A stretch of DNA of 63,904 nucleotides, filler included, from Pelomyxa schiedti (Eukaryota; Protista; Evosea): NCBI GenBank assembly GCA_020536535.1. It is 9 parts of 9 records of this genome, joined end to end, with 100 filler letters (N's around TTAATTAATTAA, not from the genome) between each part and the next. Parts side by side here need not be neighbours in the genome. Positions count along the whole stretch, not along the records: positions 53,192 to 61,727 come from JAHLWZ010001315.1; 8 more parts are not named here. The stretch is one strand, 5' to 3'. Under the pieces are notes generated by a model. It saw only the letters and a program-made list of their open reading frames with translations. It did not search any database and was not told where the DNA came from. The position numbers and the translations under genes are program-made. Positions 53,768-58,983 of the stretch are shown one piece after another. Each line of letters opens with the position of its first letter. Positions within the stretch are counted from its first letter, which is position 1.

Positions 53768-55116
53768 CTAGATTCTCTGGAGGAATAAAATACCAAAGTA
53801 TGGAGGCAGTGAGTCACACAGAGGGAGGCTCAGGGTCGCAATGGTGTGTGGGTGAGCACCACCCATGGCTGTACTCAAAGAGGAGGCCTCCCTACCGTTG
53901 CAGTCAATAACACTGCAACCACTTCCGCCAATGATTTTTCTTGTATACACCCCGTGACTTGGATCAAATGTCGAATGGGAGTGGGAAGAAGCCGCCGTCA
54001 CACTGTGATAAACATCGTGGCTGTGCGCTATGCTCCCACCGTCCTTATTTGGTGCTAGGGAGCTGGAACTACCAAGTAAGAAGCGTCCAACGAGGTTGAC
54101 ACGGCCATTTTTTCCATCACACAATGCCCAGCCAGGAGGGACCTCGTTGACTGTGCCACGAAACATCAGAATGATCCCGGGGGGTAGATCTTCAAGTCTG
54201 TTTATCGAGCCCGACCCAGGGCGCCTCATGAAGTAGGCAACAGTCCAGTAAGGGGGCAGGGTTGGCGTCGTGGAGGTCGAACCATTTACATAGTGGGAGT
54301 GGGATCCACCCCAACCTGTGTCCAGGCCATCAGCGCTCCTCCCATTGGTGTCGATGAGGGTGTTTGAGCCGCCATCGCAATCTCGCTTGTAACAGCCAGT
54401 GCTGCCAAAGGCCTTGTGGTAATGGTTCCCGTCGGACGATGTGTATGCGGCCCATGTATGGGAATGGGAGCCGTCGCCCCCTTTCTCCCCAAACCCGTCG
54501 TAGTGGCAGCCGCGCACAAAGCGGTTGCTGAGATCAGGGGTTCCATTTTTCCCATCACAGACTGACCATCCCGGCTGTATAACGTCACCTTGGAGGCATG
54601 CAATGATAGTTCTTTCTGGGAGGACTGGAAGTGATCAGCACTATTGGAGGCATGAAAAGTGAAGATACCTGCATTGGCCATGTAGGATGCAATGTAAGGT
54701 AGTTTTATAAATAGTGGCACATTGCTCCCTCCTGCTGATGCATTGCAGTTGTGACCATGGGTACCCGAGACACTTGTTGTAAGGGAAGAGGACGATCGGC
54801 CGTTCCTGTCGACCACCCCATACCTCTGCCGACCCCCCATGGTGTCCCGATCGTAGACCCCCAGTGAAGGCTCAAAAGTGGAGTGTTGGTGCTGTCCATC
54901 AGACGACGTGGTGCTTGTCCAAGCATGCGAGTGAGTCGGATTTCCACCTGTACAGGGGACCTCCGTGCAGCCCATGGCAAAGCAGTCCTCTTGTTGTTCC
55001 ACCAGCTCCCAGCCAGGCGGCATCGCCCAAGTATCATCTTGTGGATCAGAGGTACTCTTAACAGGTGGCCAGAGTAAAACGACCACGTTCGGAGGAATTT
55101 CTCCCTGAGCAGCCAT
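53768..55116 (-). CDS. Triple phage tail-collar/HxH tail-fibre-like repeat protein (434 aa, one intron at 54625-54668)
   Basis: A 44-nt GT..CTGAT..AG intron fuses two ORFs. Three modules follow the pattern (I/L)P...PGWxxCDGKNGxxxLxxRFxxG...GGxxxHxH...HxH...HxH...LPPY; module 1 is more divergent (PPGWELVE, VPLF). Confidence 0.85.
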
Positions 55117-55290
55117 GGTCAGTGTGATTAAGAAGATGTGATGGCTTGGCGAGCCCCTTATTTAATTATTTGAAATTGAAGTTGGTGATGGCTTGCCTTT
55201 CCTTTGATTAGAAGAAAGATCCAAATTGGGGCCTAGTTTTCTGTTGATTGAAAAAGAGCCAAAAAAACCGGGGAAAAAAAAAAAAAAAAA
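55117..55290. promoter_or_regulatory. Putative bidirectional promoter
   Basis: 174-bp AT-rich spacer between divergent ATGs, containing ttatttaattattt and a long A run before the + strand ATG. Confidence 0.4.
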
Positions 55291-58200
55291 ATGCTGTCGC
55301 TCGGGACACAGGAAACACGAGAGCTCGGGGAGCTGTTCAACGCTTTCACTTCCGAGTTCTCAGCTCGGCCTGCCGCCTGGACAATGCCGGAGCCCTCGCT
55401 GTTGAGGGCCGCGAACCCAGAGGCGTCGGCCACTTACTCTTACAGCGGCTCACTTGAGGAGAGCCGCGCGCAGGCAGGCATGACCGAAGAGAGGTGCCTG
55501 GACGTGGACGTAGGGATCGAACACATCGACGCCGCCAGGGCCGGGCACCTGCTTCGAGGGCGGAGGGCGACAATGCACGAGGTGCGCGTCGACCTCACGT
55601 GCACCGTTGTCACCCAGCGAAGGTCGATAGGCAGCACCGCACCACCAAACGCCGGGGGATGCACCCACTACGTGCGAGAGGTAGAGGAAGGCGGCTCCGC
55701 GACGCTATCGTTCTTCTGCGAGGCGAGTTCCGAATCCGACGAGCACGATATCACAGGCTTCCTCCTGAGAGAGCTGCCGCGCTGCGTGGCTTCCGGCGAC
55801 GCCGGTGCAATGTCGTCTGGGCCTCTCCGCAACACGAAGGTTCAGCTCCACTCCGCGCTCCCCATGGCCGTTGCAACTGTTGCCGAAGCTGTGGCTCTGG
55901 CTCGCAGGCTCCCCAGCATCCTGTCGAAGCGCACGGACACCCTGAAGGTGTCTCTTGCCCCATTTTCCAATGTCGTTCCGTCGCCTTGTGTGTTGGCGCC
56001 GGGCTTTATCCGCCAGCTCACCTCCACTCTCAAGGAAAGCACCCATGTGCAATTGCAGCTTGGCCACATGCACCACAGGCTCTCCTGCCTCCTCAATGGA
56101 AACCTTCCTGAAGTCGAGACGCAGGTTGCCCAGTTCAGAGAAATCTTCGAGCGTTTTCACGCGGACTTCTGCAAGTCGGTGCGCGAGAACCTGCCGGGAA
56201 TGAGGCGACCAGCAACCCACAGTGCCACGCAAGAGCTACTTGAAGCACGCAAGGAAAAGTTCGACAGATGCGTTTTGGAAGCAAAGGAGTTCGCACAGAA
56301 GAAGGCTCACGAATGTGAAAAACTTGCTGAAACGGTCGGCGCTGTGCCAGGGCTCCTTGGAAGGAGAAATGGTGCTGCCTCATCGGCAACATCATTCCCT
56401 GCTGTTTGGCTGTCATTTCCCGTGGTGAAGATAACACAGGCCACCAAGAAACTCAAATCCATGCTTGAGAGGTTGTTTCGGAGTGACGACGATGGCGACG
56501 GAGGTGACGATGGTGCCGACATCGATGACGATGACGAAGAGGAGTGGTTCGAGAACTAGCAGTCTCTGCTCTTCCTTAGCCACTCGTGCAAGCAGCTTGC
56601 CATTCTCCAGAAAGAAGACAGTGCCTCTGCCGCCACCTTCGCCGTTTGCACACGTCCCCTCAAGGTCGAGGCGGGGCCCAACAGAACGAGGCAGGCCAGG
56701 CTTGGAGATGTTGTGGTGCAGATCCAGCCAAATGACAAGTTGTATTGTGTTAAAACATGGCCAAGGGCACCAGATTTCGTATGTGGAGCATCAACTGAAA
56801 CATCTATTACCCTCAAGGTGGCTCCAGAGGAGAGCAGCGGTGTCCCAGGACTTGATTGCAGTGCGCTCATTGTGAGGTACAGGCCCGTTCCAAACAAGGA
56901 ACTCGATGGGATACACGAGGAGGAGATTCGCCAAAACGCTCCCGTGGCAGAGTTCGAAGTGAAAGGACACCCTGCATCTGTGGAACTGTTGGACCTCAAG
57001 GGGGGCACTGACTATGAGATCTCCCTGCAGGTGGAGACACCTCTTGGGAGGTCCGACCCCAGTTCCCCGCGTATCTTTCGGACGCGGGCTTCCCTCACTC
57101 CCGCTGTCTCCCTCATTGAGTTCTACAGGGAAAACCGAGCCACTCTTTCTTTGGGGAGCCTACCCTCTTCCAAAATCCCCATTTGGGCCACCACAGGGCA
57201 GAAGAAGCCGTGGGATCAAGAAGGCAACTTCCTGTTCCTGGGTTTCCACACGAAGCAAGTGTTGAAGCACACCAACGGCGAACCGGCTGTGCTTGTGGTC
57301 GACGTTGCTCCAGAGTTCCACCCAGAGATCAAGGCGGCAGAGATCGGAGACGAGATAAACACACAGGTTATCATCTTCTCGGGCCCAACTGGGCACGGCA
57401 AGACAACACAGATCAACGCCTTCATTTCGTTCCTCCTCAGGGGTGCGCTGAGGGACCCTCTGCGTGTTATGGTTGTTGATGATCGCGGTAGCAGTCAGAC
57501 TGAGTCAGTGACAAAGTGGGTGACCGTTTACCGCCTGCGACCCATTTCACCGGCAATGGGTGGCAAGACGATCCTCATCGTGGACACCCCTGGGTTCTAT
57601 GATACCGGTGGAATTGAGAGCGACAACAGGACAACCGAGGCGATAGGGCACCTTTTCGGGCTGCTCACACACGTCAACGCCTTGGTGTTTGTTTGCAAGT
57701 GCCAAGAGGTTCGAAAGAACGTGCTGGAACCCGTGGTGACCATGGTCTTCCACCTCTTCGCCAAGGATGTCCACGACTGCCTTCGCACGATCCTCACGTT
57801 CGCAGATCTGTCTGAACCTCTCACCCTCGGCACACTCGGGGCTCTTCAGTGGCCAGTAAAACCCGACGACACATGGGTGAAGGTGAACAACTGTGCGTTC
57901 GGACTAAAAGCGACTGAAGCCGAAATCGGGGACTGGTGGCGCATTTCGGTCAACAGCCAGAGGAGGGTTCACCAGATGCTCCAGATGCCTGCGGTATCCA
58001 CGTGCCAGTCGGTGCAAGTGGCAAAGTACCGCACTCAGGTCGAAGGCATGTGCGACAGGCTCAGACTGGAAATCACACAGGCCATGGAAGGACTGAATGG
58101 GGTGCTGAACCACCTCAATGGCATTGCTGAATCGATTGGGGCACCCCCAACCAAACTGGTTCCCGTTGCGCGACCCGTAAAACGCCACTTTGAGGCACCA

Positions 58201-58983
58201 AAGGGGTACCTTCTCACGTTTTGCACGGTGTGTGCTCGTGTCTGCCACAACAGGTGTGTGTACCCAGAAGGAAGGTGCAGAGATACTTGCGCTGTAATGT
58301 ACCATCAGAAATGCACGAGGTGTCCAAACCACTGCGGATTTGACAAGCACAATAACGCACGGTGTTTCGACGGTATTTCCGTTGAGACGGACAATGTGGT
58401 GTCTGCAGAGCTACTCTCCCAGTGGAATGGGAGGAGGGCATCTGCAGAAGGATCGATCTTGAAGACCATAGAAGAGTATCAGGGTTTGCAGGCAAATTTG
58501 CACCGGCAGCTCACTGACCTGAAGCGGGTTTCGAGGTGCCTCGAGGAGCAAGCACTGAAGCACAGGCCTGGAGTGCTTGTTTCCCACTTGAAGACTCTGA
58601 TCGGGCTGGCCAAAAAAGAAGGAAGACCCACTTGCCAGCTGGATTCTTTTCTGCAAAACCTGGAACTGCAGGACATTGCAAGTTCAACACCTGGCTCTGC
58701 TTCTTCCCCCACGTCGCCTTCAGTTTCAGCAGAAGCCCCCACCAGAGCACTCTTTATGGTCAAACATGAACTTGAAAGGCAGAACAGGAGCCAGAATGCT
58801 CAAACTGGTGTTGTTTCGTTTTACAACGCGCTGGTGGCAATCCTTCCTGCAGAACTCACACTCCCACCGGATGTACCCCGCACAATCACTGGCTCGACTT
58901 ATGCAGAGAACCTCAAGGCAACAGTTAAACTCACTCACTTTCTTTTGTCCCGAACGGTTGCTGTGGCTTCTCATGACTCTTAA
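55291..58983 (+). CDS. Stonustoxin-type MACPF-like + helical/thioredoxin-like + FN3 + AIG1/septin-like GTPase + Cys-rich domain; in-frame TAG at 56557-56559
   Basis: ORFs 55291-56559 and 56713-58983 are in the same frame and open on both sides of one TAG. SLG...ELGELFNA and THYVREVEEGG are SNTX-like; FN3 LKGGTDYEISLQV; GPTGHGKT, SQT, DTPGFYDTGG; CTVC...CHNRC...CTRCPNHC...H. Confidence 0.7.

Follow-up and report, generated by a model that had tools for sequence, protein, structure and literature searches.

In the present study, we analysed a 63,904-nucleotide stretch of joined parts of the Pelomyxa schiedti genome (the window) and in it a pair of divergent genes at 53768-58983, one for a phage-type fibre protein and the other for a perforin-like protein. 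The reading that we prefer, to which we give a probability of roughly 0.55, is that an intact, spliced gene for a three-module fibre, whose product is likely a one-chain trimer and a binder of bacterial sugars, stands probably by chance beside a likely recently disabled gene of the MACPF-FN3-GTPase type. The part of most interest is the fibre, a three-module protein of phage type that an amoeba with symbionts in its cytosol carries in several copies and seems to have domesticated. An earlier reading made from the sequence alone (the sequence-only reading) had proposed the pair as a two-component recognition and killing system. This proposal is unsupported: a TAG breaks one of the two genes, we met the two families neither linked nor fused anywhere else, and the fibre family has another partner in the same organism, a metallopeptidase to which it is fused.

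The gene pair and its contig

The fibre gene starts at 55116 on the minus strand and the perforin-like gene at 55291 on the plus strand, with a spacer of 174 bp between them (55117-55290; 36% G+C, with an A-run ahead of the plus-strand ATG), which is a possible two-way promoter. Both genes lie within a single contig (53192-61727) flanked by the linkers of the joined stretch, and one read-derived DNA contig (run X1) covers 53524-59090 with zero mismatched letters at a depth of 17. The DNA depth is 7-17 over the gene pair and from about 60 to more than 7000 over the flanks. From this contig and these depths it follows that the pair is truly adjacent, single-copy and repeat-bounded, and the head-to-head arrangement on one contig was thus read correctly from the sequence. 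The two DNA runs (X1 and X2) were made from the same sample, possibly the source of the assembly, and are hence not independent of it; the RNA evidence consists of contigs of run X3 (sample S2), one RNA sample only. A bacterial or phage contaminant as the source of the contig was ruled out by a spliced intron and host repeats on it, which also answer the earlier question of its host nuclear origin.

Introns are few in the pair. For this species, 19,876 proteins are predicted in a genome of 52.4 Mb, with a mean of 7.43 introns per gene (PMC8887013; the papers cited here were available in part, and statements drawn from them refer to those parts). Against this mean, the fibre gene has one intron of 44 nt and the perforin-like gene none that is evident. 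The near absence of introns noted in the sequence-only reading is therefore borne out, but the trait is not peculiar to the pair: seven of the eight metagenome matches of the MACPF-GTPase family are single open frames of 905-1400 codons (the eighth is a 435-codon fragment), so that intron poverty seems to be general in this SNTX-MACPF-FN3-GTPase family (SNTX, stonustoxin).

The fibre gene and its product

All parts of the fibre gene are on the minus strand. Exon 1 (54669-55116) codes for module 1, which is without the collar C-x-G loop, and is followed by a GT-AG intron of 44 nt (54625-54668) and by exon 2 (53768-54624), which holds modules 2 and 3 and the terminal TAG. The intron is absent from the RNA contig of run X3 and present in both DNA runs. 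The spliced form gives a product of 434 amino acids identical to P0020, the database protein Pelo_17329 of P. schiedti. This protein consists of three collar modules, each of which opens in a collar-like way, carries three HxH motifs and closes with a P-P-Y/F strand. The motifs stand at residues 62/76/120, 203/217/258 and 350/364/407 of modules 1, 2 and 3, and their spacing is in register (14/44, 14/41 and 14/43). In T4 gp37 and gp12, HxH motifs bind metal. The exon 2 product matched Pfam Collar (PF07484) at an expect value (E) of 3.6e-5 with 24.1 bits against a cut-off of 24, and the whole protein scored 22.7 bits against the same cut-off; a tail protein of PHROG matched the exon 2 product at E 1.3e-22. 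Four solved fibre chains were matched by the single protein at E 2e-7 to 5e-4, and the family profile matched solved fibre chains at E 1.7e-13 to 5e-4. The three tail-collar/HxH modules that had been proposed are thus confirmed by Pfam, PHROG and the motif register.

Our efforts at structure prediction did not settle the fold. The monomer model was weak (mean predicted local distance difference test score, pLDDT, of 37), with 9nxk as its best fold match at Z 3.7 over 52 residues, and a complex prediction of the three modules as separate chains with zinc scored 0.40 against 0.34, 0.00 and 0.00 for the controls and was not used as evidence. No prominent hydrophobic stretch was seen at the N-terminus by simple averaging (best 11-residue mean 1.42; no dedicated predictor was used). 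On the contig, which holds the perforin-like gene and repeats, no virion tail genes were noticed around the fibre gene.

Two host paralogues of the fibre protein were found, Pelo_16606 (53% identity) and Pelo_3022 (55%); neither they nor the window protein have lost any of the nine HxH motifs. In Pelo_3022 (P0142), an N-terminal HEIGH metallopeptidase is joined to the same three collar modules; its Pfam matches to M10 (E 2e-4) and M57 (E 4e-3) are both below the cut-off. We propose Pelo_3022 as a candidate fibre-aimed protease of the HEIGH-type zinc, M10/M57-like kind. P0021 falls in one 90% cluster with P0142, and its N-terminal end is possibly annotated short. A nesting of the perforin-like gene in an intron of the peptidase-fibre gene was considered and rejected, as the P0142 peptidase was unmatched in the window and in 245 loci.

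Outside P. schiedti, all detected fibre relatives that carry a name or a genomic context are viral or prokaryotic. With fibre queries we retrieved 237 loci, viral and prokaryotic, and found one collar module in 192, two in 22, three in 19, arrays of 9-10 in two and none in two. The three-module loci come as three single-module genes, as a two-module and a one-module gene, or as a single frame. A ceiling of three modules per locus was ruled out by the two loci with arrays, L176 and L177 (3000-11639), which hold 9-10 tandem one-module collar genes; the contig name marks L177 as a giant-virus bin. In three phage tail clusters (L001:4944-6238, L012:649-1969 and L071:4857-6205), a one-module frame comes next after a two-module frame, an order suggestive of a 2+1 heterodimer working as a trimer.

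The single-frame form has the layout of the window protein. In L040, a single three-module frame sits between tape-measure and endolysin genes of a phage tail cluster, and the three best Atlas clusters for the fibre are phage proteins of 424-427 amino acids, with a recognition score under the Atlas mark. These unnamed phage collar proteins of about 425 amino acids (L040, P0024, P0030, P0145 and the Atlas clusters) match the window fibre in architecture and length, whereas the identity of L040, P0024, P0030 and P0145 to it is merely 23-30%. The number of HxH motifs per module is 3/3/3 in the window protein and both paralogues, 4/4/4 in P0024 and P0030, and uneven in P0022, P0145 and L040. The C-x-G loop is missing in the first module only in 10 of 11 fused chains, the window chain included. 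In a quick tree (all trees were made by FastTree only, with all rows kept), the host modules cluster together with moderate support (Shimodaira-Hasegawa-like support 89) and not by position with the phage modules; the triplication in the host may thus have been independent of that in phages.

T4 fibre tips are homotrimers. Phage tips of the T4 gp37/gp12 type (9nxk of Pseudomonas phage Pa223, 6ov6 of Bizionia C24, 9qgo, and 8on5, a fibre of a Photorhabdus extracellular contractile injection system) share the collar and the HxH needle with the window fibre. In these solved chains the best match spans about one module, whereas the window fibre has three, and unlike phage fibres it is without a virion-attachment region. 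The homotrimeric state of phage fibre tips is also described in PMC12724248, as is the virophage DSLV2, in which three tandem PF07484 collar proteins co-purify as a heterotrimer and bind Synechococcus lipopolysaccharide. The DSLV2 tripartite tail proteins thus resemble the window fibre in having three collar modules, with a needle-shaped tip and glycan binding proposed for both; they are three viral genes, whereas in Pelomyxa one chain, known here from its sequence, is made from an intron-bearing nuclear gene. In the literature, searches on tail-collar proteins of amoebae or protists led to work on virophages and giant viruses only, and those on one-chain fibre tips found nothing by title or abstract start.

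Proposed mechanism of the fibre

In our proposal, the likely fold of the fibre protein is a one-chain trimer, and its likely targets are bacterial surfaces or surface sugars. Each module would leave its collar and then fold back to it, and the three modules on short linkers would take the place that three separate chains have in a phage fibre tip. In T4 gp37, the collar is built of residues 811-860 and 1016-1026, including the last residues of the chain (PMC12724248), and since this chain ends where it began, short linkers would suffice to join the modules. The three HxH motifs of each module could then pair across modules into three six-histidine metal sites, with a receptor-binding tip left over. 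As the protein is without a clear signal peptide, it might act in the cytosol as a tag or an aiming module; two of three symbionts are free in the cytosol (PMC10579272), and in the paralogue Pelo_3022 the aiming module would carry the metallopeptidase. A virus-derived fibre acting on bacteria is plausible. For the recognition and control of the prokaryotes in the cytosol of Pelomyxa, the spliced multi-copy fibre family offers a concrete receptor candidate, and enzymes aimed at a target are hinted at by the fusion to the peptidase. Asymmetric receptor binding, moreover, could be conveniently studied on a natural fibre tip made of one chain.

The perforin-like gene

The perforin-like gene is on the plus strand and consists of two open parts. 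The 5' part (55291-56559) codes for an SNTX-type MACPF domain, a helical domain and an acidic linker in 422 codons, and is closed by an in-frame TAG at codon 423 (56557-56559), between the MACPF part and the GTPase. The 3' part (56560-58983) has 807 open codons for FN3 (about 56761-57090), an AIG1/septin-like GTPase (about 57346-57930), a Cys cluster (about 58222-58365; ten Cys at residues 978-1025) and a helical end. The domains named in the sequence-only reading therefore hold, but owing to the TAG, which that reading had overlooked, they do not form one open frame. Alone, the N-terminal half of the window protein matched stonustoxin alpha at E 0.095, and the family profile did so at E 4.9e-34. 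A model of the MACPF part was compared by Foldseek, and both stonustoxin subunits of 4wvm came out on top (E 8e-8 and 4e-6), followed by C9 and perforin; this model is of low confidence (mean pLDDT 48) and its membrane-inserting segments are unresolved. At residue 125 stands T-H-Y-x6-GG, which we take to be the MACPF motif. The helical FAT domain (PF21109) scored E 0.027 in the window protein and E 2e-7 in the homologue P0006, and FN3 gave a Pfam E of 0.016-0.028. The AIG1-like GTPase match (Pfam E 5e-4 to 8e-4) has 19.8 bits, under the cut-off of 27, and leaves the subfamily unsettled; its motifs at residues 698 (P-loop), 765 (DxxG) and 836 are presumably G1, G3 and G4. Stonustoxin (4wvm) is homologous to the window protein over MACPF, FAT and part of the next domain. 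SNTX has the order MACPF-FAT-THX-PRYSPRY and works as an alpha/beta pair (PMC10566576); the window family ends in FN3-GTPase-Cys and not in PRYSPRY, and no second SNTX-like subunit gene was found on the contig. By its stonustoxin-type MACPF, the family would be predicted to form pores.

This family is not new, being already widespread in fungi, red algae and animals. A word search returned 16 relatives, including six named ascomycetes, a tardigrade and two Daphnia; a full HMMER search gave 74 matches at E up to 1e-30, and the ten that were looked up include red algae and an acoel. P0168, P0169, P0314 and P0172 place the family in unicellular red algae (Porphyridium, Rhodella and Erythrolobus) and the acoel. 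In the Atlas, several clusters have the MACPF-FN3-GTPase architecture, mostly of chordates where the phylum is known, and among 147 further family matches the MACPF part is present in the same chain in 37. A pattern scan of 404 candidate stretches of viral contigs found no member of the family. The patchy spread over red algae, acoel and ascomycetes suggests lateral transfer or many losses. Literature searches (stonustoxin with fungi, GTPase or AIG1; journal coverage was partial) found no paper or functional study on the family, and the parts available of PMC10566576, PMC12107551 and PMC12373286 do not treat this architecture.

Compared with its family, the window copy has a long branch, the most eroded MACPF part and the internal stop. 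Its homology to the family proteins known from ascomycetes, red algae and animals (database names include 'Neoverrucotoxin subunit beta' of Porphyridium purpureum and 'G domain-containing protein') is colinear over the full length; the window protein is 30-36% identical to ten homologues, which share 42-84% among themselves. It keeps 50 of the 109 conserved columns in the MACPF part and 83 of 119 in the GTPase, against 74-82% and 81-95% in four other members. Its scores against the family are 0.35 bits per residue for MACPF and 1.37 for the GTPase, and the N-terminal parts of two other members reach 1.30-1.32. The nearest tree relative is L088:121-1425, which has an extra small helical stretch before the acidic linker, by eye presumably SAM-like.

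The TAG is present in DNA contigs of both X1 and X2 and lies directly 3' of a conserved acidic-WFE motif. Nine of ten aligned homologues cover its column, and all of them read on. Decoding of TAG as an amino acid was ruled out: a TAG also closes the fibre gene, at the point where its family is conserved to end, and is thus a working stop in P. schiedti. An intron excising the TAG is unlikely, as the homologues align gap-free on either side, with no RNA contig over the site; the RNA contigs of run X3 cover 55734-55919 and 56749-58978, and neither reaches the TAG. Downstream re-initiation would not rescue the GTPase either: the first Met past the TAG is residue 727, where the 504-aa database model begins, and this is beyond the P-loop at 698, so that the P-loop would be lost. 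The perforin-like gene is therefore likely a recently disabled copy, which we rate above read-through of the TAG, and it makes poor material for studying its family.

Alternative explanations

The pair could be a cassette, working or lately broken, with a shared two-way promoter, in which the fibre would mark bacteria and the MACPF-GTPase would perforate them or the vacuole. We hold this to be unlikely. The 174-bp divergent spacing and the location of two nearly intron-free genes inside one single-copy island agree with it, as do the detection of both genes in RNA sample S2 and the fusion of the fibre family to an enzyme elsewhere in P. schiedti, by which it can couple to an effector. Co-expression was seen as the presence of both genes in this one sample only. 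On the other hand, the MACPF-GTPase frame is broken by a stop, and a genome as dense as this, with a gene every 2.6 kb or so by the protein count and genome size given above (PMC8887013), should contain short divergent spacers; another candidate pair, on unverified gene calls, is 323 bp apart at 52442/52766. Conserved adjacency, which had been named as a check, was not found, nor was any fusion of the two families. The family occurs in fungi, red algae and animals, with the collar module in none of its 147 proteins (two matches at E 0.87-0.96 were taken as noise) and in none of its eight metagenome loci, which are 1.5-21 kb long and partly redundant; the family was likewise in none of the 237 collar loci, which are viral or prokaryotic. 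Among 15 longer proteins matching the fibre, none had a MACPF annotation (these were cluster representatives only, and P0142 was missed). In the searches for relatives, where clustering may hide some, the MACPF-GTPase showed no close paralogue in the host, so the fibre paralogues are probably without such a neighbour.

Several observations weigh against a chance pairing with a disabled gene. The linkage tests are weak, owing to the kinds of loci just described and to the fact that the neighbourhoods of the host fibre paralogues were not covered. Both genes are present in the one RNA sample, and two nearly intron-free, probably laterally acquired genes of conflict type, 174 bp apart, share one repeat-bounded single-copy island. 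The 3.7-kb frame has a single lesion, and its P-loop, DxxG, MACPF GG motif and Cys cluster are intact; the stop is thus recent or tolerated, and the frame was selected until lately or still is. The low MACPF score may be partly a matter of distance, as the window protein branches with L088 and apart from most members. Another reading is that the perforin-like gene still works independently of the fibre, through a leaky TAG giving a short MACPF-helical form and a rarer full-length one, or that the TAG is private to the culture, the two DNA runs being of one sample. The 807 open codons past the TAG, the intact GTPase motifs and the RNA contig over the 3' part fit this. The six bases after the TAG fit five of the six letters of the read-through motif CARYYA (PMC3542737), and CARYY follows just 8 of 938 TAGs in the window. 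However, CAR is a Gln codon and Gln occupies that column in six of ten homologues, so protein conservation accounts for the first three letters and explains much of the match. No homologue stops at this column, and the RNA contig over 56749-58978 contains an extra base relative to the window, either an error or possibly another lesion. A working perforin-like gene is therefore, in our judgement, decidedly unlikely.

As for the fibre gene, it could have been left behind by an integrated virus (a phage, virophage or giant virus) and play no part in the host. Its surrounding repeats and the viral or prokaryotic nature of every named or contextual relative outside P. schiedti would suit a relic, which we nevertheless find very improbable, as the gene has a canonical intron that is spliced in RNA, the host has three or more intact copies, 53-55% identical, that keep all HxH motifs and of which one is fused to a peptidase, and no further viral gene was noticed on the contig. 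At the other extreme, the domesticated one-chain tip might be a cytosolic receptor for symbionts or escaped prey that aims effectors, both as the peptidase fusion and through co-expression with the perforin-like GTPase, whose leaky stop would set the ratio of its short to full-length forms. The odds of this appear slim to us; if true, a eukaryotic cell-autonomous defence or symbiont control would have been assembled from phage parts.

Flanking repeats and other features of the window

The hairpin at 53426-53464 (19-bp arms) and the element at 59064-59192 like a miniature inverted-repeat transposable element (MITE; 39-bp inverted arms), both named in the sequence-only reading, are multi-copy by DNA depth, with a bin depth above 7000 at the MITE-like element against 7-17 over the genes. 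At 59300-60800 on the plus strand, where a hAT remnant had been claimed, no Pfam transposase match was found in 12 frames read through stops; the region is a degenerate multi-copy repeat of unconfirmed family, with a DNA depth of about 120-260 in bins 59462 to 60886. On the previous contig, predicted gene calls give another candidate divergent pair, 52442 (minus) and 52766 (plus), 323 bp apart, and a partial second copy of the MITE-like repeat stands at the start of this spacer (52421-52494). Proline-rich frames at 46686-48931 form a near-duplicated block on each side of an N gap, which may stem from tandem duplication or from a fault of the assembly. A protein-kinase-like frame, with RDIKEDN and DFG motifs by eye, lies at 49411-50324.

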